From an uncultured Bacilli bacterium (GTDB lineage: Bacteria > Bacillota_I > Bacilli_A > RF39 > UBA660), in the NCBI GenBank assembly GCA_934098665.1, contig CAKOOO010000001.1, forward strand, positions 30,823-94,822: a DNA stretch of 64,000 bases, in the 5' to 3' direction. Position 1 is the stretch's first letter; each line of letters begins with the position of its first letter. Shown piece after piece: positions 6,975-62,652 of this stretch. The position numbers and the translations under genes are program-made. Below the pieces are notes generated by a model. That model was not told the origin of the DNA, searched no databases, and worked only from the letters and a program-made list of their open reading frames with translations.

Positions 6975-9128
6975 TTAATTTATTACAAAAGGATTAGTAT
7001 ATGAGCCATCTCCTGAAGATATTTCAGTGCCAGGTTTGATGGAAACGACCGAGCGCACACCCCCCGAGTAGTTCACGATGCTGTAGTAGCTCCACCCAGC
7101 GGAGTTCACTGCCCTGACGACGGCGCTGTAGATGCTGTTAAAGTAGTAGGGAGAACCAAGCCATACATATTGTCCATTATTAAAGTAATGACTACTTCCA
7201 TAATTTGCTAACCTTAATTCTGGTGCTGTTAATAATCCTATAGGATATTTTAATTGTGCTTTTGGATTATTTACACTAAATCTATCTGTTTCATTTGCAC
7301 ATGCCAAGTTTTTATTATTTTCATCATAGTTTTTAAATTCTAATGAAGTCGTTGTACTTCCGCCGTTTGGATTCCATCCATTTGAAGATAAATTAGTTAT
7401 GGTTCTATCATTACAAAATACTGTATCTTCTAGTTTACCTTCATATTTATCTTTTATATTTTTTTCATACCAACTATCTATATATGCTTTTATTGTACTA
7501 TCTTTTGTATTTACATCATTATCATATAGCATTTCATTTAAGGCATCATCTACAGATTTTCCATTTGTTAGCGTTATGTAATATGGAGTACCACCATCAA
7601 TAGCATATACATAATAAATTGATGTACAGCTATTACCATTTGTTAAGCATGTATAATGGTGTGTATTTACATTTGTTTTATTTGTACTCCATGTATCTGT
7701 ATTTATTGTCGTAGTATTAGTTAATGTATATGTTCCATTTGCATATGTAAATGATGAACCAAATACATAATCACTTCCATTGTCTGTTCCATCTACATCA
7801 CCATTTGACAGTGAGTAATAATAAATGTAATATCCACTATATCCCACTATATGATATACATTTGTACATGTTTCAGTTGTAGAACTACTATTACATGTGT
7901 ATTTTCCTACTAATGTACTTATATTTGAATCTGTTACATTTAATGTTGTCGCATTTGTTAATGTGTATTTTTTAGTGCTGTTATCATATGTTACTGCATC
8001 GGCATAAGCTTTTGTTCCACTGAAATATGTACTATTTACTATTGTTTTAGTTGAGTACGTATATACTTTGTTTTCATTATACATATATCCTACATATGCT
8101 AGTGAATTATCATTACTATTAAATTTACTTGTTCCTATTTGTGAATCTGTTCCTGTATTATTACATGTTTTTATTATGCTATTTACTTTTCCAAAACTAA
8201 ATATTACATTATTTCTTGTATTATTTCCACTCGTCCATGAATATTTTCTTGTAAAAACTATCTTTATTACATCTGATGTTGTTAAATCTTTAAAACTTAT
8301 TTGTCCTGTTATTATTCCCGTAAATTTACCTTGACTTACATCATCTTTAAATATTTCTACATTTATGTTATTTAAAGAATCATACATTGATAAATCAAAA
8401 TTTAAAACGTAGTTTCCATTTGATGGTGCTGTAAATGATATTGTTGAACTATTTGTTCCAGTATTTGTACTTGTCCATGTTTTATTTGTTTCATCAAAAT
8501 TATATGAATATGATGTATCATTAATTAAGTTTGAATATTCTGACTGATTTAATGATTCTGAAGTATAAAAATCTTTTTGAACGCCATTATATACTATTTT
8601 AACTCCACCGGTATCTGTAGTTCTTACTATTTTCCAACAATAGTTTGCAAAAAGTACATTGTTATTTTCTACATTGCCAGTATAGTAATATATATTATTT
8701 GCATATGTTGTTGTATCACCATAATCTGCTCCATTATATAGTTTTACAAATTCATCACCATTATTATATCTTTTCTTAACTATACCATATAAAGATGTAT
8801 CTTCCTTATAATCAAAATACAAATAGCATTTATCACTTCCTATAAATGAAAATGATACTGTTCCTGTAGAGTTATCATAACTAGTTACTTGTCCATTATT
8901 TTCACAATGCGTTTTTTCTTCATTTAATATATAATCACCTTTTGGTATATCTTTTGAACTAGACTTGGTATAATCAGTTGCACCATTTTCTTTTATCATT
9001 ATAGATAATTTTTCTTCTTTAATAGGTTTATTTTTACTCAAATTATTTTGTTTTAATTTATAGGTTAAAATTAAGCTTAAAACACCTACTATTAAAAATA
9101 CGAACAACACTATTTTTTTCTTTTTCAT
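6975..9128 (-). CDS. membrane-anchored variable surface protein, paralogue A1 (717 aa)
   Basis: N-terminal signal-anchor MKKKKIVLFVFLIVGVLSLIL. Shares a Cys-containing N-domain with the 24032 and 42194 genes and a ~600-aa core with the 30206 gene. C-terminal WLGSP...GGVRSVVSI...GDGSYTNPFVI module. RBS AAGAGGAG. Confidence 0.85.
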   Translation of the reverse strand: MKKKKIVLFVFLIVGVLSLILTYKLKQNNLSKNKPIKEEKLSIMIKENGATDYTKSSSKDIPKGDYILNEEKTHCENNGQVTSYDNSTGTVSFSFIGSDKCYLYFDYKEDTSLYGIVKKRYNNGDEFVKLYNGADYGDTTTYANNIYYYTGNVENNNVLFANYCWKIVRTTDTGGVKIVYNGVQKDFYTSESLNQSEYSNLINDTSYSYNFDETNKTWTSTNTGTNSSTISFTAPSNGNYVLNFDLSMYDSLNNINVEIFKDDVSQGKFTGIITGQISFKDLTTSDVIKIVFTRKYSWTSGNNTRNNVIFSFGKVNSIIKTCNNTGTDSQIGTSKFNSNDNSLAYVGYMYNENKVYTYSTKTIVNSTYFSGTKAYADAVTYDNSTKKYTLTNATTLNVTDSNISTLVGKYTCNSSSTTETCTNVYHIVGYSGYYIYYYSLSNGDVDGTDNGSDYVFGSSFTYANGTYTLTNTTTINTDTWSTNKTNVNTHHYTCLTNGNSCTSIYYVYAIDGGTPYYITLTNGKSVDDALNEMLYDNDVNTKDSTIKAYIDSWYEKNIKDKYEGKLEDTVFCNDRTITNLSSNGWNPNGGSTTTSLEFKNYDENNKNLACANETDRFSVNNPKAQLKYPIGLLTAPELRLANYGSSHYFNNGQYVWLGSPYYFNSIYSAVVRAVNSAGWSYYSIVNYSGGVRSVVSIKPGTEISSGDGSYTNPFVIN
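7041..7151 (-). other. GC-rich NNC-codon patch (candidate DGR variable region) in A1
   Basis: Hand count gives about 58% G+C in a ~25% G+C gene. 23 of 37 codons end in C (TAC, AAC, AGC, ATC, GCC, GTC, CGC), which is atypical of the surrounding AT-ending codon usage. Encodes PYYFNSIYSAVVRAVNSAGWSYYSIVNYSGGVRSVVS. Confidence 0.55.
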
Positions 9129-9174
9129 AAACTCCTCTTTTTGCCCGTAAATACGGCATTGAGTTTTTTTATAT

Positions 9175-9299
9175 TAGATACATTTAAGAAAATACGAACG
9201 CCTATTTACGTACCTTACATCTTAATAATACACTATTTTTTATAAATTTTAAAGTCTAAATAACGATTTTACGCTATATAATTTTCTTAAATGTATCTA
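9175..9299 (-). promoter_or_regulatory. invertible promoter cassette 1 (promoter faces gene A1: ON)
   Basis: Perfect 19-bp inverted repeats: TAGATACATTTAAGAAAAT at 9175-9193 and its reverse complement at 9281-9299. The 87-bp core carries, on the minus strand, TTTAAA (9253-9248), 17 nt, then TATTAT (9230-9225). The homologous core is inverted at loci 3 and 4. Confidence 0.8.
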
Positions 9300-9330
9300 C
9301 TAAAGGAAAATACGAACAAGGTAAATACTG

Positions 9331-9359
9331 GGTTTGTTTAAGATAAACCTATTTTTTTT
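9331..9359 (+). terminator. weak plus-strand hairpin + T-run just outside cassette 1
   Basis: GGTTT(G)-loop-(T)AAACC followed by TATTTTTTTT. Conserved at loci 2 and 4 with G-U-compatible changes that pair only in plus-strand RNA. Confidence 0.4.
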
Positions 9360-9382
9360 AATTTACAAAAAAAATGATGAAA

Positions 9383-15134: not shown

Positions 15135-15689
15135 TTTATTCACTTCCTTTTTATTTAGTTTCATTTTAAAAAAATACTTTCTAATTACACTTTTTAACTA
15201 AATGATATTATATCATTGTTTTGTCTTTTAATAAAGTCTAATGCTTTAAAATATTTATCTTCGCATTCCGCAATTTCATCAAACTATTGAATTGCTAACT
15301 CAGTATCACAAAACTTCCGTTTCACCGATATTCTCTCCGAGCTACACCCATTACTTGTGTCTGTGGCTGTGCAGGAGTATCTTTAATAATGCACTATCTC
15401 TAACAGGAATGTACTTGATGAATGTGTATCAAATTTTCAAAAAATATTTCTTGCTCTTCTAAAAATAAAATAAAAAGGTGTAGAAAGTATTAACTTTCTC
15501 TCACCTGTTTCCACACTCAAATTTAACTTTTAAAGTCATAATTTCTATAGAATTATAATATAGAAATATTGCTACCTCTTATGAAAAATTAACTAATAAT
15601 GCGTTTATCATCATTCATCATCTTCATTACTAAAAATCTCGTTTGCTATAGCAATTACTGCCATTACATCCGTAAATCTAAAATGATTA

Positions 15690-17959: not shown

Positions 17960-18346
17960 TTACCAAATTAAAGAGCAGACGTCAAATCTGATTTTACTTA
18001 ATTGTGTTGCTCTTAATGAATTTACTCTATATCCAACTGATATTATGGCATCTAAATTATAAAATTCAATATTTCTCTTAACACTTCTATTTTCTTCTTT
18101 TTGAACTAATTCTATTTTGGAATAAGTTGAATCTTTATCTAACTCATTTTCATTATAGATATTAATTAAATGCTTTGCTATTGCCGGTTGTTCTACATTA
18201 AATAATTCCGCAATAGTTTTTTGAGTCATCCATAAAGTTTCATTTTCATATCTTACTTGTATGCCTTTGTCTTTTTCTTGAAGTTTGAATGTTATAAATT
18301 TTTCAGTGCTACTTCTAATTATTAAATCTTTTGCCATTGTTATCAT
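17960..18346 (-). pseudogene. RhuM-family gene fragment (N-terminal ~113 aa only)
   Basis: Matches the RhuM N-terminus (...WMTQKTIAELF...YNLDAIISVGYRVNSLRATQ). Homology is lost where QFRxWAT should follow, and a stop comes soon after. Confidence 0.6.
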
Positions 18347-18518
18347 CTTCTTTGTCTAAAATAATAGTTTCCCATAAATCACTCTTACATAATTTTTATT
18401 AAAAATTGTAAAAAGGATTTTAATTAAAAGTTTTATAAAATAAGGGGTTTTAAGAGAGTTTATATAAGTCGTTCTTTACCAGTTGATTAAACTTTTATTA
18501 AACCCCATACCATTATTT

Positions 18519-19373
18519 TCACTCATTTTTTTCACCTTCTTTATTGTTTCCTAATAATTTTATCTTTTCAGCATTATTAAGTATATCTAATTGATACTTT
18601 GCAATTTCATTTAATATTTCAAATCTCTCTTTCTTACTTTTTCCTTCCTTAATTAATTCAGCATTATGTGATTCTAAGTTTGATAATACTGTTAATTCAT
18701 TTATTGAAGCATAATCTCTAACATTAGAATTCTTTGCTAAACTAGGATTAAGTTCTCTCCATTTTTTAGCCGTTGTATTAAAGAGCACTACATTTAGAAT
18801 ATCAGCCTCTTCAGCATACTTTAACCATTCACTATCTTTATAATAGTTATTATCAGGCAATATATAGTTTTTAATTGCATCGGTATGAATTAAATAATTG
18901 TTTTTAGTTAATATTCTTTTAACATCCCATTCTCTATTTTCATTTTCTAATGTCTTTAGTCTTTCAAATTCTTTTATCAAATATAATTTAAAAACAGGAC
19001 TAATAGATGAAGCAAATTCAAAAGCAATATCTTTATGAGCATAAGTTCCGCCGTACTTACCACGTTTGGAATATATACCAATTGCATTTGTTTTTTCACA
19101 CCATTCAGTAACACTTAATGTAAATGTGTGAAGCCCTGCACTTTTTCTAAACCCGTCGAATTCGACGGAATTAAAATCTGGATTATAAATTGATTCCCAA
19201 GTTCCTAAAAATTCTAAAGTAATTCTATTTCTTAACCAGTTTCTTATAATGTCATCAGTTTTTGATTTTCCTTCTTTGTATTTACCAAAATCAGAAATGC
19301 AAATATAATCATTATCATTAATGCTTGTTATATTAACTTTTATATTTTGAACTTCAATTGTTTTATTTATCAT
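18519..19373 (-). CDS. KilA-N domain protein
   Basis: 284 aa with a KilA-N-like N-terminal half (...YICISDFGKYK...WLRNRITLEFLGTWE...GGTYAHKDIAFEFASSISP...). Confidence 0.7.
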   Translation of the reverse strand: MINKTIEVQNIKVNITSINDNDYICISDFGKYKEGKSKTDDIIRNWLRNRITLEFLGTWESIYNPDFNSVEFDGFRKSAGLHTFTLSVTEWCEKTNAIGIYSKRGKYGGTYAHKDIAFEFASSISPVFKLYLIKEFERLKTLENENREWDVKRILTKNNYLIHTDAIKNYILPDNNYYKDSEWLKYAEEADILNVVLFNTTAKKWRELNPSLAKNSNVRDYASINELTVLSNLESHNAELIKEGKSKKERFEILNEIAKYQLDILNNAEKIKLLGNNKEGEKNE

Positions 19374-20710: not shown

Positions 20711-21148
20711 TTAACAAACGCAGTCTACATAGCAATCAGTTAAGCATCTAATGCAACATAGACAAGAGCAGTCCATTGTGAAAAATGAATTTGTGGAAAC
20801 ATATGGATTTAAAGAAGTTTCATCTGGATTTGTAGCAAGAACTCTAAATGTACAACAATTTCCTTCGATTTTTTCAACCCTAAATACTGTAGAGCATGTA
20901 TCACTTGAAGTACCTGCCGGACAAGCTACAGCCTCTTTAGCTACTGGCATTGACCAAGGCTGTCCATTTGCACAACATGTATAAAGCATTACTGGTCTTG
21001 TATTACAAATAAGGCAGTTTGCACCCCCACCAAGCATTGGTCTATCACATGTATCTAAACAGTTTTCAGGGCAAGCATTATCTTGAAGCACAAGAATAAC
21101 TGATAGTATTTCATTTATGCAATTACCGCTTTTTTTTGCGTTATTCAT
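20711..21148 (-). CDS. cysteine-rich spore coat/exosporium protein, CotY/CotZ-like
   Basis: 145 aa with 19 Cys. Colinear with Bacillus CotZ as I recall it (...LQDNACPENC..., TVFRVEKIEGNCCTFRVL, C-terminal DCSCLCCIRCL). Confidence 0.65.
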   Translation of the reverse strand: MNNAKKSGNCINEILSVILVLQDNACPENCLDTCDRPMLGGGANCLICNTRPVMLYTCCANGQPWSMPVAKEAVACPAGTSSDTCSTVFRVEKIEGNCCTFRVLATNPDETSLNPYVSTNSFFTMDCSCLCCIRCLTDCYVDCVC

Positions 21149-24031: not shown

Positions 24032-25621
24032 TTAACTTTCTACTACATATGGATTATTCCACGTACCATCGCCTGATAAATTTACATCTTTTGATATTGA
24101 GATGACAGGGCGTATGGCATACCAAGTATTAGATGCATAAACACTTTGTGTGGCGTTATTAATATATACAGCAACTTCAATAAGACTATTTGTACTATTC
24201 CAGTAATACGATGTTCCTAACCAAAAACCAGCATTTGCATTTAGATACATATTTGATATAGCATTTTTAAAATCACTTCCAGCTAAAACTAATTCATCTG
24301 CTGTTAATAATCCAACCGGAATATTTAATTTTCCATTACCATTAGTCGTACTTACTGTAAATTTATCTTCACTATTAGGGCACAGCAAACTTGGACTTGC
24401 TGACACATATAATCTTTGATATGCATCAAAATAATAAGAATATGTAGGGTTAGACATCCAAGTTGTTCTTGTAGTCCTATCATTACAAAATATTTGTTCA
24501 GCAATAGCATCATTTAATTGATTTAAATTAGTATAATTATTGTACCAGTTTTCAATATACAATTTTATGTTACTATTATTTTGACTACCATGTTGTTCAC
24601 CAAGCGTATACATAAATCCGCCATATTCTGTGTTTGAAGCCGTATTATTAAATGGATTTATGCCAATATAATTATTATATGTTGTTAAAACAACCTTTGT
24701 ACTTTCAGTTGGTTCAGTAATTCCTGAGTAAATTAATCTTATTGAACCATCTCCATTTATTCTGACAATACGCCAATATATATCTTTCCCTAAAATTCCA
24801 GTTTGAGAACAACTACCACTAGATGGCTTTGTAGAAGAAAGAGAAGTAGCATCCATACACGCATAAGCATCACTTGTATATTTTCCAAATTTTAACCAGT
24901 TATTATCTACGGCTCCTCTAAAATAGTAAGATGTTCCTAAGTCATCTTCGATTGCATACATTCCTTCATTTTCAGTTGCTGCAATTGTAAAATCTGGTGT
25001 ATCTTTTGCTTCAATTGCATCTTTTCCACCATTATTATTTAAAATTAATAACACTGCTGATGACATAAAACTTATTTCATCAGATACTTTAACATTACCT
25101 GTGGCATCCTTTACCCACAAATATGGTGTATCACTTGTTATTGATGTAGATAGTGTATATGGTGTTGTTGGTATATTAAGCCACTCTTCAGGTTCAATAT
25201 CACTACTACTTGAAAGTCCATAACTTTTTAACATTACATTATCATTAAGTGTTACTGTTAAAATATCATTTTCTACTTTTAAGTCATCACTAATTGTTGG
25301 TGCTATGCTATCTTCATCAAAATATAATGTACATCTATCACTTCCTATAAAACTAAAACCCACTACACCACTAACATTATCATAACTTGAAATTTCCCCA
25401 TTATTTTCACAAAAACTTTTTTCTTTATTAAGTAAATAACTTCCTTTAGGAATATTTTTTGAATTTGTATAACTACTTGAATTATTTTCTTTTACATATA
25501 TTGCATAACTTTTATTTACTAACTTATTTTTATTTAAATTTATCTTTTTATTATATATAAAAATAATACTTAAAACTCCTATCAATAAAAATACGAACAA
25601 CACTATTTTTCCCTTTTTCAT
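24032..25621 (-). CDS. membrane-anchored variable surface protein, paralogue B1 (529 aa)
   Basis: Signal-anchor MKKGKIVLFVFLLIGVLSIIF. N-terminal ~185 aa homologous to the 42194 gene. C-terminal FWLGTSYYWNS...AIRPVISI...GDGTWNNPYVV module. RBS AAGAGGAG. Confidence 0.85.
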   Translation of the reverse strand: MKKGKIVLFVFLLIGVLSIIFIYNKKINLNKNKLVNKSYAIYVKENNSSSYTNSKNIPKGSYLLNKEKSFCENNGEISSYDNVSGVVGFSFIGSDRCTLYFDEDSIAPTISDDLKVENDILTVTLNDNVMLKSYGLSSSSDIEPEEWLNIPTTPYTLSTSITSDTPYLWVKDATGNVKVSDEISFMSSAVLLILNNNGGKDAIEAKDTPDFTIAATENEGMYAIEDDLGTSYYFRGAVDNNWLKFGKYTSDAYACMDATSLSSTKPSSGSCSQTGILGKDIYWRIVRINGDGSIRLIYSGITEPTESTKVVLTTYNNYIGINPFNNTASNTEYGGFMYTLGEQHGSQNNSNIKLYIENWYNNYTNLNQLNDAIAEQIFCNDRTTRTTWMSNPTYSYYFDAYQRLYVSASPSLLCPNSEDKFTVSTTNGNGKLNIPVGLLTADELVLAGSDFKNAISNMYLNANAGFWLGTSYYWNSTNSLIEVAVYINNATQSVYASNTWYAIRPVISISKDVNLSGDGTWNNPYVVES

Positions 25622-25667
25622 ACACTCCTCTTTTTTCCCGTAAATACGCCATACTTTTTTCTTATAT

Positions 25668-25793
25668 TAGATACTTTTAAGAAAATTGTACATCGATTTT
25701 ACGTATCTTACTATTAAATTATACATTAATTTTCATGATTTTTAAACCCTTTTTAACGATTTTTTCTTGTTCGTTTTTTCTTAAAAGTATCTA
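25668..25793 (-). promoter_or_regulatory. invertible promoter cassette 2 (promoter faces gene B1: ON)
   Basis: Perfect 18-bp inverted repeats: TAGATACTTTTAAGAAAA at 25668-25685 and its reverse complement at 25776-25793. On the minus strand the core carries TTTAAA (25746-25741), 17 nt, then TATAAT (25723-25718). Confidence 0.8.
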
Positions 25794-25824
25794 CTTTAGG
25801 AAAATACGAACAAGATAATTACTG

Positions 25825-25852
25825 GGTTTATTTGATATGAACCTATTTTTTT
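25825..25852 (+). terminator. weak plus-strand hairpin + T-run just outside cassette 2
   Basis: GGTTTA-TTTGATA-TGAACC (one G-U pair) followed by TATTTTTTT. Confidence 0.4.
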
Positions 25853-26105
25853 AATTTGCATAAAAAAGGCCCCAAAAAAGGAGCACTTAAAAATATTTAT
25901 AAAAATTTTAATTATATTTGTCATATAGTATTAAAGGTCACTGATAAAAGTAATAAATCAATTAAGAAAATTATTCAAATTAATTTAAACTGCTTTGATA
26001 GATATGGCGATGATAAATTTTTATATAAAACAGTGTTATGTGAAGTTTCAAGTCATAAACAGTATTTCGATTTAATCGAAATAGATGATATAAGCCTTTT
26101 AACCT

Positions 26106-29351: not shown

Positions 29352-29384
29352 AATTACCCCCATAAAGTGAAATTATTGTACCAT

Positions 29385-29409
29385 AAAAAAAAGGATATTT
29401 CAATTATCC
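29385..29409 (-). terminator. rho-independent terminator of the DUF218 gene
   Basis: Minus strand reads GGATA-ATTGAAA-TATCC followed by T8. Overlaps the stop codon at 29404-29406. Confidence 0.55.
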
Positions 29410-30141
29410 TAATATTAGAAATTTTACAAAAGCAAGGGCTTCCCTTAAAAGGTTATTTGGAAGATAGTATTCGTTAGAACCCGCAGGTAATCCTTTAGCA
29501 TTTACGCCATATTTTTTGCCTATCAAAAGAGCTCTATACATATGAAAATTATTTGTAACTATTCCAATAGTTTTATTATCACGGGTTAATTTTTTTGAAT
29601 TAATTAAATTTTCTTTAGTAGTATGGCTTTTATCTTCAATAATTATTCTTTCTTCATTAATACCATTTTCTATTAAATATTTTTTCATAATACTTGCTTC
29701 GGTATACTTTTCATTATTACCTTTGCCACCACTTACAATTACAAAAGTATTTTCATTTTCTTTCAAATAACTTACTGCTTTATCAAGTCTATATTTTAAA
29801 ACTATGCTTGGTTTATCATCATTAACTTGGGCTCCTAAAACAATGATATAATCTAAATTATTTACATTTTTTATATTCATTTTACTTATAATTAAACTTT
29901 CAATAATTAAAAAAATACCTAAACATATAGCTAAAATAATAATAAATATTTTTTTAAAAGTTTTATGTTTATCAAAAAAATTAATTTTTATTAAAATAAA
30001 CATGGTAAGAAAAAATATACTTATTAAAAACCATATTAAATAAAATAATGTTCCAGAATTAACATTTAAAATAGATATACCATATAAAAATGTAATAACA
30101 CATAAAACTAAATTTATTATTAATAATATTTTTCTTTTCAT
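29404..30141 (-). CDS. YdcF/ElyC-like DUF218 membrane protein
   Basis: N-terminal TM helices followed by a DUF218-like domain (IIVLGAQV..., VIVSGGKGN, HTTKEN, IVTNNFHMYRA). Start taken at MKRKILL (30141). Confidence 0.7.
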   Translation of the reverse strand: MKRKILLIINLVLCVITFLYGISILNVNSGTLFYLIWFLISIFFLTMFILIKINFFDKHKTFKKIFIIILAICLGIFLIIESLIISKMNIKNVNNLDYIIVLGAQVNDDKPSIVLKYRLDKAVSYLKENENTFVIVSGGKGNNEKYTEASIMKKYLIENGINEERIIIEDKSHTTKENLINSKKLTRDNKTIGIVTNNFHMYRALLIGKKYGVNAKGLPAGSNEYYLPNNLLREALAFVKFLILG

Positions 30142-30205
30142 ATCTATATTATAACTAAATTTTATTAAAAAAAATACTACTTTTTTTACATTAAGTAGCA
30201 TTTAA

Positions 30206-32689
30206 TTACTCTATTACAAAAGGATTTGTATATGAGCCATCACCTGATGATATTTCAGTTCCAGGTTTGATGGAAACGGCAGAGCGCACACCCCCCTCGC
30301 GGCCCACGTTTTCGTTCCAGCTACTGGAGCTCACTCCCAAGACGGCGGAGGTGTTAATGCCGAATCTGTAGGGAGAACTAAGAAAAACATTTTGGCCATT
30401 ATCAAAGTAATGACCATTTGAATTTGAATATCCCGCTAAACTTAATTCTGGTGCTGTTAATAATCCTATAGGATATTTTAACCTTGCTTTTGGATTATTT
30501 ACACTAAATCTATCTGTTTCATTTGCACATACTAAACTTTTATTCCTTAGACTATAATTTTTAAATTGTAATTCAGTTGTTGTACTTCCTCCATTTGGAT
30601 TCCAACCATTTTGTGATTCATTATCCATTGACCTATCATTACAAAATACTGTATCTTCTAGCCTATCATCATATTTATCTTTTATATTTTCTTCATACCA
30701 ACTATCTATATATGCTTTTATTGTACTATCTTTTGTATTTACATCATCGTTATATAACATTTCATTTAAAGCATCATTTACTGATTTTCCTCCAGTTAAG
30801 GTTATGTAATATAACGTTCCATTAGAATCATAATATACATAATAAACGGAGGTACAGCTATTACCATTTGTTAAACATGTATAATGATGAGTATTTACAT
30901 TTGTACTACTTGTACTCCATGTATCTGAATTTATTGTTACTGTATCAGTTAATGTATATGTTCCATTATATGTAAATGATGAACCAAATACATAATTACT
31001 TCCATTATCTGTTCCATCTACATCTCCTTTTGACAATGAGTAATAATAAATATAATTTGATTTATATCCTACTATATAATATACATTCGTACATGTTTCT
31101 GTTATAGAACTACTACTACAAGTATATTTTCCCACTAATGAACTTATATTTGACCATGTTACATTTAATGTTGTTGCTGTTGCACTATCAAGTGTATATT
31201 TACTCATACTACTATCATATATTACTGCATCGGCATATGCTTTTGTTCCATCGAAATATTCATTATTTACTATTGCTTTACTTGAAGGTGTATATACTTT
31301 GTTTTCATTATACATGTATCCCACATATGCTGGTGAATTATAATTACTATTAAATAGAGTTGTTCCTATTTGTGAATTATCTCCTATATTATTACATGAT
31401 TTTATTATACTATTAACTCTACCAAAACTAAATATTACATTATTTCTATCTCCTATCGTCCATGAATATTTTCTTGTATATATAATTTTTATTACATTTG
31501 ATGTAGTTAAGTTTTTAAAAACAATTTGTCCATTATCTGTTCCTGTAAATTTTCCTTGACTTACGTTATCTTTAAATATTTCTACATTTATACCATATTC
31601 ATAATCATTCATTGATAAATCATAATTTATTACATAATCTCCATTTGATGGTGCAGTAAATGATATTGTTGAACTATTTGTTCCAGTATTTGTACTTGTC
31701 CACATTTTATTTGTTTCATCAAATGTATATGGATATGTAGCATCATTACTTAAATTTACATATTCTGACTGACTTAATGACTCTGAAGTATAAAAATCTT
31801 TCTGTACACCATTATATACTATTTTAACTCCACCAGTATCTGTAGTTCTTACTATCTTCCAGCAGTAGTTTGCAAATAAAACATTATTATTTTCTACATT
31901 GCCATCAAAATAATATATATTATTTGCATATGTTGTTGTATCGCCATAATCTGCTCCATTATATAGTTTTACATATTCATCATTTGCATTATATCTTTTA
32001 GCAATTGCATTATATAAAGTTGGTTCTAATTCTTCAACTGTACAACTATTATTTTCTACATATATTGTTCCTGTAAACGATTTATCTACTAGTTGTGACT
32101 GGTCTAAATTTAAATTATAGTATCTTCCTGTTATATTTATATCTTGTATAGTACTTGTTCCACTACTTTTAATGGTGGCTCCTTTTACAAGTATTTTTTT
32201 TGCTCCTACTGTAGATGTTTTTGGTGTCCATGAGCTATCATAAGCAAAATTAGTTTCATTTACATAACTATTTGTTCCACTTGGGCTTTCTACTTGCATC
32301 GTAATTTCTTTTGTAGCTCCACTTGTTACATTTACTGTGTTTCCATATATTTCACTATCAAGATTATATTCATATACTACATCATATGTACATGTTGTTG
32401 TTACGTTTGGTGCTCCAGTTAAATTAACAGTAAGCGTTGCTGTATTTTCTGCGGCTAGTCCAGTATTTCCCTTAAACATACCACTTTTAGGTACTATTAC
32501 ATTTAAATTTGCACTTGTGGCAATAAAAGAGGTATTACCTATATCATTTGCATAAATATTTACCGCTACTTTATTTTCTAAATTTACTGTAAACATCCCA
32601 AAATATGCAAATGATGCCCCAATTAATATTAGAAGTAATACTAAACATGCTATAGCACTTTTTATAGTTATTTTCTTTTTATTTTTCAT
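30206..32689 (-). CDS. variable surface protein, paralogue A2 (827 aa) with a different N-terminal module
   Basis: Residues ~224-827 are closely similar to A1 residues ~104-717. The N-terminal ~220 aa are unrelated to A1 and begin MKNKKKITIKSAIACLVLLLILIGASFAYFG, resembling a TasA/camelysin SipW-type signal peptide. Confidence 0.85.
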   Translation of the reverse strand: MKNKKKITIKSAIACLVLLLILIGASFAYFGMFTVNLENKVAVNIYANDIGNTSFIATSANLNVIVPKSGMFKGNTGLAAENTATLTVNLTGAPNVTTTCTYDVVYEYNLDSEIYGNTVNVTSGATKEITMQVESPSGTNSYVNETNFAYDSSWTPKTSTVGAKKILVKGATIKSSGTSTIQDINITGRYYNLNLDQSQLVDKSFTGTIYVENNSCTVEELEPTLYNAIAKRYNANDEYVKLYNGADYGDTTTYANNIYYFDGNVENNNVLFANYCWKIVRTTDTGGVKIVYNGVQKDFYTSESLSQSEYVNLSNDATYPYTFDETNKMWTSTNTGTNSSTISFTAPSNGDYVINYDLSMNDYEYGINVEIFKDNVSQGKFTGTDNGQIVFKNLTTSNVIKIIYTRKYSWTIGDRNNVIFSFGRVNSIIKSCNNIGDNSQIGTTLFNSNYNSPAYVGYMYNENKVYTPSSKAIVNNEYFDGTKAYADAVIYDSSMSKYTLDSATATTLNVTWSNISSLVGKYTCSSSSITETCTNVYYIVGYKSNYIYYYSLSKGDVDGTDNGSNYVFGSSFTYNGTYTLTDTVTINSDTWSTSSTNVNTHHYTCLTNGNSCTSVYYVYYDSNGTLYYITLTGGKSVNDALNEMLYNDDVNTKDSTIKAYIDSWYEENIKDKYDDRLEDTVFCNDRSMDNESQNGWNPNGGSTTTELQFKNYSLRNKSLVCANETDRFSVNNPKARLKYPIGLLTAPELSLAGYSNSNGHYFDNGQNVFLSSPYRFGINTSAVLGVSSSSWNENVGREGGVRSAVSIKPGTEISSGDGSYTNPFVIE
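30272..30373 (-). other. GC-rich NNC-codon patch (candidate DGR variable region) in A2
   Basis: Hand count gives about 62% G+C, and 19 of 34 codons end in C. Encodes PYRFGINTSAVLGVSSSSWNENVGREGGVRSAVS. It sits at the same position as the A1 patch, but the sequence differs and is 3 codons shorter. Confidence 0.55.
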
Positions 32690-32811
32690 AAAAACTTCTT
32701 TCCTTTCTTTAGTATGTTATTTATTATTTAAATAAATACGAACAATTAAAATTTTTTCAAAATTTAAATCTTAATTTTTTCCCGTAAGTACGCACGTCTT
32801 TTTTCTTATAT

Positions 32812-32936
32812 TAGGTAGATTTAAGAAAAATACATAACGTAATTTCGTTATTTAGACTTTAAAAATTACAAAAAATGATGTATTATTTAATAGTAAGGTA
32901 CGTAAAATCGAAGTAAGATTTTCTTAAATCTACCTA
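32812..32936 (+). promoter_or_regulatory. invertible promoter cassette 3 (promoter faces away from gene A2: OFF)
   Basis: Perfect 18-bp inverted repeats: TAGGTAGATTTAAGAAAA at 32812-32829 and its reverse complement at 32919-32936. The core carries, on the plus strand, TTTAAA (32858-32863), 17 nt, then TATTAT (32881-32886). The core is the reverse complement of the locus 1 core. Confidence 0.8.
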
Positions 32937-33035
32937 CTTTAGGAAAATACGAACAAGATAAACACTTAAGAAAATGAAAATTAATAAATTTTTTAAATTT
33001 ACATAAAAAAATTAAAGTAAATTACTCTAATTTTC

Positions 33036-33587
33036 TTATTTATTAACTCCATATTTTTTAGTAATAGGATCTAAAAATAATTCATTTTTTAAGGGATATA
33101 TTGTTAAAAGTAAATAAAAAGCAAATATAATAAATAAAATAATGCAACCTAAATAATTTAAAACAAATATTTCTTTAACATTATTTATTATATAATAATA
33201 AAAGTACTGGGAAACAAATACCGCTATATAAAAAATTAAAATATCTATAACTAAATAACTTTTTTTAGTAAACATTTTATAACCATAAAAAAGTATTGGA
33301 ATAAGTAAAATAACTATAATAATTGAGATAGATTTTGCAAAAAAATAGTTTATAGGTAAATTTATGCCTTCGAAAATTCCTAATAAAAATGAAGCAGAAA
33401 GTGCCATCTTAATATGTTCCCAAGTACTTTCATTTACTGCTGAAAAAATAGATGAAATTTTATTTTTATTAAATAACTTATATGTAAAATGAAAAAATGT
33501 ACCTAATATACTAACAAATAAAAAACCAATAATTAAATTCATAATATATGATATGAAAAAAAGTGCTACTTTATTCAACAGTAACAC
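33036..33587 (-). CDS. small polytopic membrane protein
   Basis: 183 aa with about 5 TM helices and an NESTWEHIKM motif. Overlaps the glmS stop, so the true start may be an internal Met. Confidence 0.55.
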   Translation of the reverse strand: MLLLNKVALFFISYIMNLIIGFLFVSILGTFFHFTYKLFNKNKISSIFSAVNESTWEHIKMALSASFLLGIFEGINLPINYFFAKSISIIIVILLIPILFYGYKMFTKKSYLVIDILIFYIAVFVSQYFYYYIINNVKEIFVLNYLGCIILFIIFAFYLLLTIYPLKNELFLDPITKKYGVNK

Positions 33588-35322
33588 TTTTTGCTAAATT
33601 TCTTGGTTTATCTATATCTTCACCTTTTAATAAGGCAACTTTATATGCAAGTAGTTGAAGACTTGCAACAACAAGTATAGGGTCTATAATACTATTTATA
33701 TGAGGTACTTTTATTTTATCATCATAAAAATCTCCCTGTATATCTAAACTTGTTATAAATAGTGAATATGCTCCCCTTGCATGAACTTCTTTAACATTAC
33801 TTATTGTTTTTAAAGCCAAATTTTCATCTGTAATTATACTCATTACTGGAGTATCATTTTCAATAAGGGAAATTGTACCATGTTTAAGTTCTCCAGAGGC
33901 AAATGCAGATGAGTTTATATAGCTTATTTCCTTTAATTTAAGGCTTCCTTCTTCGCAAAGGCCATAATCTATTCCCCTACCAATAAAGAAAGCATCTTTT
34001 TTATTATATATTTTTTTTGCGTATTTTTGATAGTCTATGTCAAATACAGTATCAAGTGCTTCATTTACTTTATAAAAATCATTTAAATCATTTACACCTC
34101 CCATTTTAAGGGCAATAAGTGTAAGAAGTAAATATTGAGCAGTAAATGCTTTAGTCGTTGCTACCGCTATTTCTGTTCCAGCTTTAATATATAATACTTT
34201 ACCTGCTTCTCTAGCTATCGAAGAACCTACTACATTTACAATAGCAAGAGTATCTATACCATCATTTTTAGTAATTCTAAGGGCCTCTAAAGTATCAGCA
34301 GTTTCACCAGATTGAGAAATAAATACTACTAAAGTATTCTTATCATAAAAATGTTTTTGATATCTAAATTCACTTGCTAAAAATACTTCACACTTAATAC
34401 TTGCATATTCTTCGAATACTTTTTTAGCAATATCTGCAGTATAACTTGCACTACCACAACCTACAAAATAAATATTTTTATATTTTTTAAACTCAGGCAT
34501 ATTTTCATTAAAATGACCATCAGTAATATAATGATTTAAAATATTATTAATAACTATAGGTTCTTCATGAATTTCCTTAAGCATAAAATGCGGATAATCA
34601 CCTTTCATTACATCATTACTTGTACCTTCAAAAGTTAAAAGTTTTTTCTTTAATAAATTTAAATTACTATCATAAATATATTCTTTATCAGAAATTTTAA
34701 CTATTTCATCATTTTCAAGTAAATAAAATTTATTTGTATATTTAAGTGCCGCTGTCATATCTGATACTAAAAAATATTCATTATTCTTTTTTGCAAGTAT
34801 TAAAGGAACATTTTTTCTAGCACCATATAAAGTATCAGGTTCATCTTCATTAATAATTGCAAGAGCATAACTTCCTTTTATATCGTTTTTAAGTCTTGCT
34901 AAAGTTTTAAGCATATCATGATTTTCATTATATAAATGATTTATATATCCACATAATATTTCTGTATCTGTTTCACTTTTTAAATTAACATTAATTATTT
35001 CCTTTAAATCTTTATAATTTTCAATAATACCATTATGAACAAGAGTTATTTTACCTTGTTTATGAGGATGTGCATTAATATCTGTTACTCCCCCATGAGT
35101 TGCCCATCTTGTATGAGCTATGCCAATGTTTCCATAGTCATCACTAGTAACTAAATTTTCAAGATTTTTAACCCTTCCTATAGTTTTTTTAATAGTTATT
35201 TTACCCCCATTTATATAAGCAAGTCCTGCTGAATCATAGCCTCTATATTCAAGTGATTTTAAGCCATTTAATAAAACAGGAATACTATTTTGGTTTCCTT
35301 TGTAACCAACAATTCCACACAT
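33571..35322 (-). CDS. glmS: glutamine--fructose-6-phosphate aminotransferase
   Basis: 583 aa with the N-terminal nucleophile MCGIVGY, two SIS domains and a C-terminal ...AKSVTVE. Preceded by the glmS ribozyme. Confidence 0.97.
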   Translation of the reverse strand: MCGIVGYKGNQNSIPVLLNGLKSLEYRGYDSAGLAYINGGKITIKKTIGRVKNLENLVTSDDYGNIGIAHTRWATHGGVTDINAHPHKQGKITLVHNGIIENYKDLKEIINVNLKSETDTEILCGYINHLYNENHDMLKTLARLKNDIKGSYALAIINEDEPDTLYGARKNVPLILAKKNNEYFLVSDMTAALKYTNKFYLLENDEIVKISDKEYIYDSNLNLLKKKLLTFEGTSNDVMKGDYPHFMLKEIHEEPIVINNILNHYITDGHFNENMPEFKKYKNIYFVGCGSASYTADIAKKVFEEYASIKCEVFLASEFRYQKHFYDKNTLVVFISQSGETADTLEALRITKNDGIDTLAIVNVVGSSIAREAGKVLYIKAGTEIAVATTKAFTAQYLLLTLIALKMGGVNDLNDFYKVNEALDTVFDIDYQKYAKKIYNKKDAFFIGRGIDYGLCEEGSLKLKEISYINSSAFASGELKHGTISLIENDTPVMSIITDENLALKTISNVKEVHARGAYSLFITSLDIQGDFYDDKIKVPHINSIIDPILVVASLQLLAYKVALLKGEDIDKPRNLAKSVTVE

Positions 35323-35347
35323 AAAAAATTTCCTTTCTTGTTTTATT

Positions 35348-35478
35348 AAATACCTCTTTGTTATAATTTATATTTTATTTTTTCAAAGTATTTTACGAAG
35401 TAAAACTTCTCCGCTTACACATCCGCTGAAAAATCGACAATGTAAGTCCTCGTCACCTATAACCGGCCATGCGCTATT
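35348..35478 (-). ncRNA. glmS ribozyme: glmS ribozyme/riboswitch
   Basis: Minus strand reads AGCGCAUGGCCGG...GUGACGAGGACUUACAUUGUCGAUUUUUCAGCGGAUGUGUAAGC.... This matches the conserved glmS ribozyme core (AGCGCC..., GACGAGG, AUCGAAUUUUCGGCGGAUGCC). It sits in the 5' UTR of glmS. Confidence 0.8.
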
Positions 35479-35519
35479 ATAAAAAAATACTCCTTTCGCT
35501 TTCTATAATTTCTAAAAAG

Positions 35520-35643: not shown

Positions 35644-36615
35644 ATGGAATTGAAGCAACCCATAAATGATTTATATAAACATTGTCACTATGCTAAACAT
35701 ATTAATTATAATAGTTTAAATGAACAAATTGAAAAAGAAAACTTTTATTTAAATAATAATTTTATTTATGAAGAAATGATAAACAGTTTTTTAGATAATA
35801 ATGAGCAAGTTCATAATAAAAAAACTAAATATAATGAACATTTAAATGAAGATGATTTATTTACTTTAACTTATGATTTTTTTAAAAATTTAGATAGTGA
35901 TATTTTTAAAACATTTACTATTTTATTTAATAATAAAGAAAATAACATAAGTTTTATAAAAGATAAAATTAATTCTAGATATATTGGCTACACTAAAAAG
36001 TATCCAAATAATTTTATTAAAATTGAAATGATTAAAAATAATAATATAACGGATTTATATACCCTTGTACATGAATATGGTCATGCAATAAATCATTTAA
36101 ATAATGATTTTAACTATACTTTATATAGAAAACCTTTTTCAGAAATTGAAAGTACATTTTTAGAAATTTTATTATCAAATTATTTAGAAAAAAATGGATT
36201 TAATCAAAAAGATATTTTATATTATAATAATTTTAAGTTTGATAGCATATATAAAGATGCCCTTTTTATGAAAGCTAAATATTTATTTTTAGATTTTCAA
36301 AATTTAAATCATTTAAATTGTCATAATAAAAATTATTATAAAGAAATTAAGCATATGGTAAATATTTCAAAAAAAGATATTAAATATTTATATAGTATAA
36401 ATTCTTATGAACTTCTTCCTTATGTAGTAAGTCCTTTATATGCTTTTGAACTTTATGATATGTATTTAAAATCAAAAGAAAAAGCTATGAGTGTATATAA
36501 AAAAATAATTTCTTTTGATAGCCCATCATCAATAGATATAATAAAAAATTTAGAAAGTTTTTATTTATACCCTAATGAAACTGATACATGTATAAGATAT
36601 TTAAAAAGGAAGTAA
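35644..36615 (+). CDS. HExxH zinc metallopeptidase-like protein (half-size, M3/PepF-like motif region)
   Basis: 323 aa with HEYGHAINH followed about 25 residues later by SEIESTFLE, an HExxH...E arrangement as in M3 oligoendopeptidases. No signal peptide. Confidence 0.5.
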   Translation: MELKQPINDLYKHCHYAKHINYNSLNEQIEKENFYLNNNFIYEEMINSFLDNNEQVHNKKTKYNEHLNEDDLFTLTYDFFKNLDSDIFKTFTILFNNKENNISFIKDKINSRYIGYTKKYPNNFIKIEMIKNNNITDLYTLVHEYGHAINHLNNDFNYTLYRKPFSEIESTFLEILLSNYLEKNGFNQKDILYYNNFKFDSIYKDALFMKAKYLFLDFQNLNHLNCHNKNYYKEIKHMVNISKKDIKYLYSINSYELLPYVVSPLYAFELYDMYLKSKEKAMSVYKKIISFDSPSSIDIIKNLESFYLYPNETDTCIRYLKRK

Positions 36616-36616: not shown

Positions 36617-37522
36617 ATGAAAGTAAATGTTAATGAATATAAAAATAAATTAAGAAAAAAAATATATATTGATAATAAAAATATTAGTTTTAATCCAAAT
36701 ATAACTAGGGTTATAGAAAACTTTGCTTGTGTAAATAAGGCATCTGACTGGAAAGAAAATTCAGTAGTAAGTTTAACTAAAAATGACATATTTGATCTTA
36801 CTTATGATTTTTATAAAAGTTTTTTAGATAAGAATCTTTTTAATATATTTGAGTGTTATTTTAAAAACAGAAATGAAAATATTTATTTTTTAAAAAAATC
36901 AAAATATAATCTCGAAGGATATACAGATGAAAATAACATAATTAAAATAATTAACAATAATAAATATAATTATATTATCCTTGATACACTTATTCATGAA
37001 ATTGGTCATGCTATAGCAAATATTTATAACGATAAAAATTGTAATTTAGATTATAAGCTAGCTTATAGTGAAATAGAAAGTATTTTTCCAGAATTTTTAT
37101 CAACTATGTTTATTAATGAAAAAGAATATTCACAAACTATTTATAATTCATATTTATCATTATGTAACTTAAATAACATTTTAAATTATAAACTTGAGGT
37201 ATATTACTATATGAAAAATAATAACATAGATATAAATAATAAAGATTTATTTTTTAAACTTAATAATGATTTAGGTTGTGACTATGAATGTCTAGCTCAA
37301 ACTTATGAAACATCATTTAATTATTATCTTCCCTATACTATTGGTTCAGCTTATGCATTTTTTCTAATTAATATTTATATTGATGATAAAGACTATGCTT
37401 TAAAACTTTATAAAGATATACTAAATATGCATTTTTATAATGAAAGATATTATGAAAAATATTTAAGTAATAATGGTATATATCCAAACTATTCTTGTAA
37501 ACTTTTTAGGGTAAAAAAATAA
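36617..37522 (+). CDS. HExxH zinc metallopeptidase-like protein, tandem paralogue
   Basis: 301 aa with HEIGHAIAN...SEIESIFPE. Colinear with the preceding gene and starts 1 nt after its stop. Confidence 0.5.
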   Translation: MKVNVNEYKNKLRKKIYIDNKNISFNPNITRVIENFACVNKASDWKENSVVSLTKNDIFDLTYDFYKSFLDKNLFNIFECYFKNRNENIYFLKKSKYNLEGYTDENNIIKIINNNKYNYIILDTLIHEIGHAIANIYNDKNCNLDYKLAYSEIESIFPEFLSTMFINEKEYSQTIYNSYLSLCNLNNILNYKLEVYYYMKNNNIDINNKDLFFKLNNDLGCDYECLAQTYETSFNYYLPYTIGSAYAFFLINIYIDDKDYALKLYKDILNMHFYNERYYEKYLSNNGIYPNYSCKLFRVKK

Positions 37523-42193: not shown

Positions 42194-43642
42194 TTAACCA
42201 ATATGATATGGACTGGTTTGAGAACCAGTGCCACCTACTATTTTTATAGCATCACTATCTAAATAGAAAGTTGGACGGACTGCAAACTGGTTGCTTCCGA
42301 CAAGGTAGTTATAGTTGTAGCTGATGTTCACAAACCCTGGCGAAAACAAAATAGCAGCATTATTCGAATTCGAAGAAAAAGGGGAAAGAAGCCATTCTCC
42401 ACTACTTACAAAACTACTTTGTGATGTAAACAACCAATCATTATTATAACAATCACTATATGATGAATCGTCCCAATAATATAATGCTTTTGCTCTACAA
42501 CTTGACTTATTTGTTGTAGAACCTCCCACTGTGGCATAACCATAATCACTTGGGTACATTAATCCAATTTTTGCAAATATACTGCTTGGATTACCACTAT
42601 ATATTGCACTTGTATTTCTTTCCTCTGTATAAATACCTTCTGCCGTTAAAGTACCATAATTCGATGAACTCGCTCCACCTAAATGCCATTTTGCATTTGC
42701 TACCCCACTAGATAGTTTACTATTTACATTTGAAGTGCCTAATATAGTAGTTAAATATGTACCATTAATTTCAGTTTTTAATGATACGATCTCCCAATTA
42801 TTTGTTCCTGATGAATTCCAATACTTTCCACTTGTTCCACCATAGTTATTTGTATCTATTACTTTTAATAGTTTTTTAGTTCCACTACTATTTGTTCCAT
42901 CACTTGAATACTCTTCATCAAATAATCCAATTATTCTAAATAATAATGAAGTACTTGAACATGTACCTTCTTTTTGATTATCTAAACATATGTAGTTATT
43001 TGGATTAGCTCCTTCATATCTTATTCCATTTTCGTCAAATATATCTGTATTGTTTGCTACCATTAATGTTTCAAATGATGTTCCAAGTGATATTGTAAAT
43101 TCTTTTATAGTTTTATTTCCTGCACTATCTTTTACCCATAGAAAATACGTACCTTCACTTTCTATAGTAATATTTAAATTATAGGTTGTACCAGTTATTT
43201 GTGTCCAACTTGTTGGCTCTACATTATTACTCATACTTAATCCATATCCAACCAAATTATTATTATCTGATAATGTAGCGGTTAATATATTTTCATTTAC
43301 TGTTAAATTATTTATTGTTGGTGCTATGCTGTCTTCATCAAAATATAAAGTACATCTATCACTTCCTATAAAACTAAAACCCACTACACCACTAACATTA
43401 TCATAACTTGAGATTTCTCCATTATTTTCACAAAAACTTTTTTCTTTATTAAGTAAATAACTTCCTTTGGGAATACTTTTTGAATTTGTATAACTACTTG
43501 AATTATTTTCTTTTACATATATTGCATAGCCTTTATTTACTAACTTATTTTTATTTAAATTTACTTTTTTATTATAGATAAAAACCATACCTAAAATCCC
43601 TATTATTAAAAATACGAACAACACTATTTTTTTCTTCTTCAT
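42194..43642 (-). CDS. membrane-anchored variable surface protein, paralogue B2 (482 aa)
   Basis: Start placed at MKKKKIVLFVFLIIGILGMVF (43642) after AAGAGGAG; the track ORF begins 10 codons upstream. N-terminal region homologous to B1. C-terminal EWLLSP...FAVRPTFYL...GGTGSQTSPYHIG. Confidence 0.85.
   Translation of the reverse strand: MKKKKIVLFVFLIIGILGMVFIYNKKVNLNKNKLVNKGYAIYVKENNSSSYTNSKSIPKGSYLLNKEKSFCENNGEISSYDNVSGVVGFSFIGSDRCTLYFDEDSIAPTINNLTVNENILTATLSDNNNLVGYGLSMSNNVEPTSWTQITGTTYNLNITIESEGTYFLWVKDSAGNKTIKEFTISLGTSFETLMVANNTDIFDENGIRYEGANPNNYICLDNQKEGTCSSTSLLFRIIGLFDEEYSSDGTNSSGTKKLLKVIDTNNYGGTSGKYWNSSGTNNWEIVSLKTEINGTYLTTILGTSNVNSKLSSGVANAKWHLGGASSSNYGTLTAEGIYTEERNTSAIYSGNPSSIFAKIGLMYPSDYGYATVGGSTTNKSSCRAKALYYWDDSSYSDCYNNDWLFTSQSSFVSSGEWLLSPFSSNSNNAAILFSPGFVNISYNYNYLVGSNQFAVRPTFYLDSDAIKIVGGTGSQTSPYHIG
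42272..42351 (-). other. shorter AAC/NNC-codon-rich patch in B2
   Basis: GTG AAC ATC AGC TAC AAC TAT AAC TAC CTT GTC GGA AGC AAC CAG TTT GCA GTC CGT CCA encodes FVNISYNYNYLVGSNQFAVRP. AAC/TAC/AGC codons are unusual for this genome. Weaker than the A1 and A2 patches. Confidence 0.35.
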
Positions 43643-43688
43643 ACACTCCTCTTTTTGCCAGTAAATACGCACGTCTATTTTCTCATAT

Positions 43689-43813
43689 TAGGTAGATTTA
43701 AGAAAATTACATAACGTAATTTCGTTAAAAAGGGTTTAAAAATTATAAAAATTAATGTATAATTTAATAGTAAGGTACGTAAATACGAGATAGAATTTTC
43801 TTAAATCTACCTA
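43689..43813 (+). promoter_or_regulatory. invertible promoter cassette 4 (promoter faces away from gene B2: OFF)
   Basis: Perfect 20-bp inverted repeats: TAGGTAGATTTAAGAAAATT at 43689-43708 and its reverse complement at 43794-43813. The core carries, on the plus strand, TTTAAA (43735-43740), 17 nt, then TATAAT (43758-43763). The core is the reverse complement of the locus 2 core. Confidence 0.8.
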
Positions 43814-43844
43814 CTTTAGGAAAATACGAACAAAGTAGATACTG

Positions 43845-43872
43845 GGTTTATTTGATATAAGCCTATTTTTTT
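43845..43872 (+). terminator. weak plus-strand hairpin + T-run just outside cassette 4
   Basis: GGTTTA-TTTGATA-TAAGCC (one G-U pair) followed by TATTTTTTT. It lies downstream of the OFF-oriented promoter. Confidence 0.4.
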
Positions 43873-43943
43873 AATTTATACTAAAAAACCACTAAAAATA
43901 GTGTTCTTTAAAACAAAAATATTGAAAATATATAAGCAAAATG

Positions 43944-60891: not shown

Positions 60892-60919
60892 ATCAACACC
60901 ACCGCTATCATTATACAAC

Positions 60920-60974: not shown

Positions 60975-60977
60975 TAA

Positions 60978-62541: not shown

Positions 62542-62652
62542 AATTACCCTCCTATTTGGATTTTTTAATAGATAATTATATTTTATCATAAATATTAATA
62601 TTTTTTTACTTTAGATACAAAAAAAACTGAGATTTTTTCCTACTACAATGGT

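Follow-up and report, generated by a model that had tools for sequence, protein, structure and literature searches.

Several bacteria switch genes with short invertible DNA segments. The fimS element of Escherichia coli, on which FimB and FimE act, is about 300 bp long, has 9-bp repeats, and lies next to its recombinase genes. Here we describe cassette 3, an element in a stretch of 64,000 nt (the window) from an uncultured Bacilli bacterium of the RF39 lineage (GenBank assembly GCA_934098665.1, contig CAKOOO010000001.1, positions 30,823 to 94,822). Cassette 3 is 147 bp long (32801-32947), lies ahead of the surface-protein gene A2, and in function is an invertible promoter switch. Such switches are of a well-known kind, and this is a new example from an uncultured gut bacterium. 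Cassette 3 resembles fimS in that a promoter lies within the invertible element, half-sites flank the repeats, and candidate sites for accessory proteins are present. The enzymes that act on fimS are tyrosine recombinases, and the same class is suggested here. In contrast to fimS, the sites at this locus are 29 bp and the core is 89 bp, no recombinase gene is adjacent, and there are at least four paralogous copies.

In Bacteroides fragilis, the serine master invertase Mpi inverts many short promoter segments at polysaccharide loci (PMC5903667). The system described here is similar in having several short, scattered promoter segments with a shared repeat consensus, each of which appears to control a surface-structure locus. 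In addition, no recombinase gene lies beside the switches, and ON and OFF states are mixed in one genome. By analogy, the multi-locus layout without a nearby recombinase most resembles the Mpi system. Compared with the serine system, however, the recombination sites look tyrosine-type (two 11-nt elements around a 7-nt spacer, 11-7-11) and the core is much shorter (89 bp). The host is an uncultured Bacillota with 25% GC, and the cargo is an orphan protein family instead of capsule loci.

The RecV switches of Clostridioides difficile include those of cwpV and flgB, the latter with 154 bp between 21-bp repeats (PMC5386303, PMC2784873). They sit downstream of a fixed promoter and act via termination or Rho (PMC5386303). 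Both hosts are gut Firmicutes with short invertible segments before surface-structure genes, and in both cases inversion was first recognised by in silico comparison of strains. One tyrosine recombinase encoded elsewhere serves several sites in C. difficile, and we propose the same arrangement here. On this comparison, the host type and the likely enzyme class appear closest to the RecV system. The promoter lies inside the core here, whereas it is fixed upstream in C. difficile, and the repeats are unrelated (AAGTTRCTATWTTACAAAAAA there, TAGGTAGATTTAAGAAAA here). The literature yielded nothing relevant on the repeat sequence, nor on RF39 with invertible promoters or phase variation in this lineage.

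Natural inversion of cassette 3

The first-pass annotation had described perfect 18-bp inverted repeats around an 89-bp core, and repeat finding bore out the coordinates. The arms, each 18 nt (TAGGTAGATTTAAGAAAA), are located at 32812-32829 (+) and 32919-32936 (-) and enclose the 89-nt core (32830-32918). At 90% complementarity, the repeat finder extended the arms to 29 nt (32801-32829 and 32919-32947). Within the 64-kb window, perfect inverted repeats of at least 18 nt with partners no more than 200 nt apart were found only in four homologous cassettes, each upstream of a minus-strand gene. Repeats of that class were absent from all 60 first-order Markov simulations. The arm motif with up to three mismatches occurs nine times in the window, against 0.81 expected, and eight of these occurrences fall into four pairs that share one geometry (9175/9282, 25668/25776, 32812/32919, and 43689/43796).

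Contigs encoding the exact A2 protein were looked up, and four other metagenome assemblies (L008 to L011) were obtained. Orientations were read from consensus assemblies, one per sample. The core of cassette 3 is oriented in L008 as in the window, whereas in L009 and L011 the A2 protein and both flanks are identical and the 89-nt core is exactly reverse-complemented, as seen by alignment and by a string check. L010 is a strain variant with a few single-nucleotide polymorphisms, and its core is flipped too. For cassette 2, the exact reverse complement is present in L142, L144, and L145 and the window orientation in two others (three of five assemblies flipped). A related locus from another species also occurs in both orientations (L018, L083, and L128 versus L041 and L122). 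An inverton is a short segment bounded by inverted repeats with two natural orientations between unchanged flanks; cassette 3 has such repeats and, at the between-sample level, both orientations. These assemblies directly demonstrate inversion of the core in natural populations, and the flipped L009 and L011 beside the unflipped L008 support the initial call of an invertible promoter cassette that is now OFF.

Recombination sites and the probable class of the recombinase

Each 18-nt arm belongs to a 29-bp site that is itself palindromic, consisting of an 11-nt element, a 7-nt spacer, and a second 11-nt element. Read toward the gene, the outer site (32919-32947, holding the arm at 32919-32936) is TTTTCCTAAAG, TAGGTAG, ATTTAAGAAAA, and the inner, gene-side site (32801-32829, holding the arm at 32812-32829) is TTTTCTTAAAT, CTACCTA, ATATAAGAAAA. 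The inner spacer is the exact inverse of the outer one, and the crossover centres are 118 bp apart.

To compare sites, 19 cassettes from the window and from related metagenome-assembled genomes (MAGs) and metagenomes were aligned, and 13 distinct cassettes picked for extended inverted repeats were used for the spacers. Metagenomes were searched with the pattern TTTAAGAAAA-N84-94-TTTTCTTAAA. Approximately 15 of 120 loci were true cassettes, recognised via their flanks, and the rest were mostly chance matches in unrelated AT-rich DNA. All 13 distinct cassettes have the 11-7-11 layout at both sites, with parts of the inner half-sites dictated by the search pattern. Conservation is highest in the two core-proximal 11-mers, partly as a result of that pattern, and the two distal 11-mers are looser. 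Nine different 7-nt spacers were found among the 13 cassettes, including TAGATAC, TAGGTAG, TATGTAG, CTTAAAC, and TATACAG, and in each of these selected cassettes the spacer is identical at 7/7 positions, inverted, between the partner sites.

Tyrosine-recombinase sites such as loxP, FRT, and dif consist of inverted elements around an asymmetric spacer of 6-8 bp that needs to match between partners. The sites here likewise have two inverted binding elements around a spacer of this length, and, with some selection bias, identical partner spacers whose asymmetry would set inversion. In loxP, FRT, and dif the elements are 11-13 bp, and the direction of the spacer decides between inversion and excision, as in the geometry proposed here. 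The likeness is geometric only, without sequence similarity to the sites of this study. Because of the 11-7-11 geometry alone, we lean towards a tyrosine recombinase as the enzyme. By analogy with the known systems, it is probably encoded elsewhere in the genome and serves all cassettes.

It is unlikely, though by no means negligible, that the same switch is flipped by a serine recombinase encoded elsewhere in the genome, in the manner of Mpi, which inverts many short promoter segments across a genome (PMC5903667). Neither class of recombinase was found near the cassettes, so the neighbourhood favours neither. However, the layout is of odd length (11-7-11), and its seven central nucleotides vary freely from cassette to cassette yet agree between the partner sites of each selected cassette, as a tyrosine-type overlap region does. 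Sites of Hin-type serine invertases are 26 bp long (12-2-12) with a 2-bp crossover, whereas here they are 29 bp and the 7-nt centre varies freely. Moreover, the 89-nt core holds no open reading frame (ORF), and a phmmer search with a Hin seed matched nothing in any locus.

Two unannotated plus-strand ORFs (35644-36615 and 36617-37522) were considered as recombinases and rejected; they carry HExxH motifs. They are tandem paralogues of 323 and 301 amino acids (aa) in a stretch of 20% GC, with no Pfam match and an HExGHA metalloprotease-like motif. The sole recombinase seen near any member of the A2 family is a 285-aa tyrosine recombinase (Phage_integrase and a SAM-like N domain) at L133:4945-5802, directly downstream of a switchless A2-type gene. 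It adjoins ireB, ruvX, and yceG and may be a housekeeping Xer.

Short motifs of the form GTA...TAC or CGTA...CG are located 8-9 nt from each half-site, both inside the core and outside the distal half-sites. CGTAATTTCG (32838-32847), one of four such GTA/CGTA...TAC/CG motifs, is 8 nt into the core from the inner site, and CGTAAAATCG (32901-32910), conserved as GTACGTAAATACG across cassettes, is 8 nt into the core from the outer site. On the gene flank, CGTACTTACG (32783-32792, -) lies 8 nt beyond the inner site and reads GCGTATTTACGGG in the paralogues, and AGTGTTTATC is its counterpart on the upstream side. With motifs on both sides of each site, each crossover site is symmetrically bracketed, and the motifs may represent accessory or arm-type protein sites.

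The site model predicts no cross-reaction between cassettes with different spacers, and cassettes 3 and 4, which share a spacer, could cross-react. These two cassettes also have near-identical 29-bp sites and are 10.9 kb apart. If a spacer match permits recombination, both same-spacer pairs in the window (3 and 4, 1 and 2) could recombine mutually and thereby rearrange the chromosome. Two further observations concern single loci. The core of L137 is a hybrid, with a left part like cassette 2 and a right part like cassette 3. A 'solo' site at L005:170-260 consists of an outer half-site, a spacer, and a gene-side half-site followed directly by an A2-type gene, with neither core nor promoter, and may represent the switch after a deletion or in an ancestral form.

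The core promoter and its proposed control of A2

A promoter of the form TTTAAA-17-TATTAT had been placed at 32858-32886 on the plus strand, pointing away from the A2 start codon (ATG at 32689), and this proved correct. The -35 element TTTAAA (32858-32863) is followed after a 17-nt spacer by the -10 element TATTAT (32881-32886), which is preceded by TG. In the direction of the promoter, the core comprises an 8-nt linker, CGTAATTTCG, 10 nt, TTTAAA, 17 nt ending in TG, TATTAT, 14 nt, CGTAAAATCG, and an 8-nt linker. The promoter of cassette 3 faces away from A2 in the window, and the cassette is OFF. Both the place of the promoter (start at 29-30, with 32 nt to the core end) and its strand are constant among the four window cassettes and the L007, L067, L095, and L018 groups.

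We consider it very likely that cassette 3 is an active inversion switch controlling A2. The repeats, the natural inversion, the 11-7-11 layout with matched spacers in the selected cassettes, and the conservation of the promoter are direct observations. In the proposed mechanism, 32801-32947 would act as an invertible promoter that turns A2, and probably also the adjacent DUF218 gene, on and off. A recombinase would flip the core, most likely by exchanging strands within the 7-bp spacers. The sigma-70-type promoter of the core would fire away from A2 in the OFF state, and after inversion (the ON state) it would fire through the inner site and a leader of approximately 165 nt into A2. This machinery would also serve at least three other cassettes in the window, and by sharing it a cell could display different combinations of mosaic surface proteins.

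A2 (30206-32689, -) encodes a protein of 827 aa and has a ribosome-binding site (RBS), GGAAAG, approximately 10 nt upstream of the ATG. The DUF218 gene (29404-30201, -) begins 4 nt after A2 and is followed by a terminator-like hairpin with T8 at approximately 29384-29410, as read by eye. It is probably co-transcribed with A2, so that the switched unit would be A2 plus the DUF218 gene. An unrelated downstream gene of 1085 aa was rejected as part of this unit, as it is no paralogue and a TGnTACAAT promoter of its own follows the terminator.

The other cassettes in the window are similarly arranged. Cassette 1 (9164-9310, spacer TAGATAC) has its promoter facing gene A1 (6975-9128, 717 aa) and is ON; cassette 2 (25657-25804, spacer TAGATAC), ahead of a gene at 24032-25621 (529 aa), is also ON in the window; and cassette 4 (43678-43824, spacer TAGGTAG), ahead of a gene at 42194-43642 (482 aa), is OFF. 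Just beyond cassettes 1, 2, and 4, conserved hairpins with G-U pairs followed by U7-8 are found at 9318-9362, 25812-25856, and 43832-43876 (+), on the outward strand only. Their predicted energies are -8.3 to -8.5 kcal/mol, compared with just -1.2 to -2.2 kcal/mol on the opposite strand. The resemblance suggests terminators that would stop transcripts from an OFF-state core. Such outward terminators imply real outward transcription from OFF cores and would serve no purpose unless the core is active in that state. The outer flank of cassette 3 differs and has no outward hairpin, and, speculatively, the OFF-state transcript of this cassette may run antisense into DUF6512 and glmS.

An improbable alternative is a post-initiation switch of the cwpV or flgB kind, in which transcription starts at a fixed upstream promoter or reads through from the glmS-DUF6512 operon, and the orientation of the core sets termination or messenger RNA stability. 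The operon runs on the strand of A2 and stops 89 nt before the outer site, and C. difficile provides precedents (PMC5386303). However, DUF6512 is followed by an AT-rich terminator-like hairpin with a T-run, and clear terminators precede the other cassettes. Although a cwpV/flgB-type switch has a fixed promoter upstream, a consensus promoter scan of the gene strand found no promoter-like site upstream of the outer site in 32937-33200. No significant fold (z = -1.3) was predicted for the ON-state leader of about 165 nt, and it lacks a terminator in both orientations. Finally, the conserved -35 and -10 elements of the core and the outward terminators are expected only if the core itself fires. 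An Rfam scan of the whole window gave no match at the switch. With regard to the upstream operon, a glmS ribozyme (Rfam RF00234, 60.5 bits) is located at 35339-35486 (-), upstream of glmS (33571-35322), and the operon reads toward cassette 3.

There is also little chance that cassette 3 is a relic for A2, with A2 run from a weak promoter of its own in the leader, such as TTGAAA-16-TATTTA near a 12-mer described below. The leader is AT-rich and contains a TTGAAA hexamer at 32753-32758 (-), and more distant A2-type genes use fixed promoters without a switch. However, the candidate -10 element lacks the invariant final T, and the consensus scan of the gene strand passed no promoter-like site in the 122-nt leader between the switch and the A2 ATG. 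The switch also still inverts at the A2 locus. In addition, decayed-site relatives have stayed ON. L137 and L138 (1150-1510 in each) have the same A2-type N-module and leader stub, and their sites are decayed, with TTTTCTTAAA changed to TTTTATTAAA by a C-to-A substitution in a conserved half-site. In both, the promoter is fixed toward the A2-type gene, an outcome to be expected of a gene that requires this promoter. From these features of the sequence, we infer that transcription of A2 depends on the orientation of the core.

Several points weigh against an active promoter switch at A2. The evidence for orientation compares samples and not read-level mixtures inside one population. The strand of the promoter is ambiguous in the cassette group of L020, L036, and L130, and a promoter match alone is not significant in 25%-GC DNA, as three were found against 6.3 expected from shuffles. 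The 7/7 spacer result is biased because the cassettes were preselected for extended inverted repeats. Imperfect spacers do exist (6/7 in L110 and L139, 5/7 in L137, and 3/7 in L138), and these four mismatched cassettes appear fixed. No recombinase was detected by Pfam among essentially all window ORFs of at least 100 aa, by phmmer with Hin, XerD, and FimB sequences as seeds in 222 ORFs from the window and 20 related loci, or in the 10 kb past the low-coordinate end of the window.

That both orientations are assembly artefacts of the inverted repeat is not credible: assemblers using small k-mers can be misled by short inverted repeats, but the repeat here is just 18-29 nt while the contig names (k99, k141) imply longer k-mers, exact reverse-complement cores come from independent samples and two cassettes, spacers agree within the selected cassettes, and the architecture is kept across species.

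The leader of A2, its protein family, and the spread of switches

The inner arm and the ATG of A2 are separated by 122 nt, close to the 125 nt or so first estimated. The first-pass annotation had seen in this leader a decayed remnant of an RBS, start codon, and signal anchor. A leader stub (32726-32782, -) does align with three paralogues and is homologous to the corresponding region (leader, RBS, ATG, and anchor) in A1-type paralogues, with its frame closed, but nearly all of the support comes from one 12-mer at conserved spacing. Identity is 11/22 nt before the 12-mer, 12/12 within it, and approximately 6/15 aligned nt after it. The gene side of cassette 3 aligns with the paralogues through GCGTAYTTACGGGAAAAAA and more thinly beyond. 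A 12/12 match is expected by chance at approximately 5e-6 by a naive calculation with the flanks at background identity. The loss of the remnant RBS and ATG was seen as described: the paralogues have AGAGGAG where the A2 leader has TTAAGAT, and the ATG is gone.

There are exactly eight copies of the 12-mer, TTGTTCGTATTT, in the window, all of them in direct pairs 211-213 nt apart around a cassette. At cassette 3, the upstream copy (32945-32956, -) abuts the outer site with a 3-nt overlap, and the downstream copy (32734-32745, -) is in direct orientation 211 nt away and is non-coding. The upstream copy joins the outer site as TTGTTCGTA|TTTTCCTAAAG. Cassettes of several species retain it together with further flank, for example CCAGTATTTACC, beyond what the search pattern requires. 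GTTCGTA also occurs in L067 and in cassettes 1 and 2, in each case beside core-proximal half-sites. In view of this conservation and of GTTCGTA at the half-sites, the upstream copy looks like an extension of the half-site.

The downstream copy has a different setting. In A1-type genes, it encodes LFVF of the signal anchor, and its variation in more distant cassettes falls at synonymous positions (e.g., TTGTTTGTAC and TTGTTCGTGA), which fits constraint at the protein level in those genes. In the A2 leader, the 12-mer is intact yet codes for nothing. It is possibly a coding relic, and it may equally well be an orphan site of the switch for a recombinase or regulator. A tentative and rather doubtful extension of the latter is a compound crossover unit of approximately 65 bp (10-nt motif, 8-nt linker, 11-7-11, 8-nt linker, 10-nt motif), with the 12-mer as an extended half-site. 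The second, orphan copy of the 12-mer, approximately 54 nt beyond the inner site, could then be a third site for the invertase or a regulator. Such a site might favour one direction of switching, link recombinase occupancy to expression, or enable the entire switch to be excised. On this reading, cassette 3, whose crossover centres are 118 bp apart, would be one of the most compact promoter switches described, and one recombinase would coordinate the whole surface-protein repertoire in an uncultured gut lineage.

Surface proteins of the A2 kind are typical products under phase variation. A2 has no match in Pfam (even at E = 10), NCBIfam, or a PDB sequence search, and its relatives in public data (more than 3,000) include none with a Pfam or PDB match. 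An AlphaFold2 model with a mean predicted local distance difference test (pLDDT) score of 78 places beta-rich domains after an N-terminal membrane helix. Foldseek matches in the PDB were to generic beta-sandwich, CBM, CUB, and adhesin folds with template modelling (TM) scores of no more than 0.12, and function was not assigned from them. Based on the model, A2 can be described only as a membrane-anchored, extracytoplasmic, beta-rich protein.

Residues 1-215 of A2 are 96-98% identical to those of three proteins (P0002, P0003, and P0005) whose bodies are 63-70% identical to that of A2. Conversely, the A2 body is 79% identical to that of A1, with an N-module identity of 30%, and 71-75% identical to proteins with N-modules just 25-44% identical. 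As judged by these identities, the A2 family is a large, strongly mosaic orphan family that shuffles N-modules and bodies. Five more distant A2-type genes (N-module identity of 44% or less) lack a switch, and their short upstream regions carry ordinary promoters. These switchless homologues led us to reject the switch as a constant companion of A2-type genes. In L006, the same type of N-module directly follows a switch without the stub. The earlier proposal that the switch predates a replacement of the 5' module agrees in substance with a mosaic family, but the order of events is unsettled, and a switch with a 5' stub could instead have been grafted onto an A2-type gene. In either order, a switch with what appears to be an A1-type 5' stub now serves an A2-type N-module.

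Other features of the window and of related loci bear on the host. Related MAGs carry the label 'Mycoplasma sp. CAG:472' or 'uncultured Bacilli'. Sporulation-type genes (CotZ-like, SpoVIF, and Peptidase_S55/SpoIVB-like) are found at 20711-21148 in the window, L139:13881-14123, and L132:1383-2342, and FtsW and EzrA are present too. These genes indicate a walled, probably spore-forming Bacillota with 25% GC, for which the label 'Mycoplasma sp.' is misleading. The window also contains a borderline Rfam match to pemK RNA at 15306-15386 (-; 35.0 bits against a gathering score of 34.8), an alternative sigma factor gene at 59074-59850, and genes with a mobile-element or defence flavour at 17960-19373 and 59959-63903 (a RhuM fragment, KilA-N, Fic, Abi_2, and HopA1-like).

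With the switch read as an invertible promoter, a low-GC, uncultured gut Bacillota lineage would vary its membrane-anchored, beta-rich surface proteins, a large orphan family, by promoter inversion at multiple loci. The orientation of a cassette is a population marker that can be read straight from metagenomes, and the A2 cassette gives a view of how switches spread.

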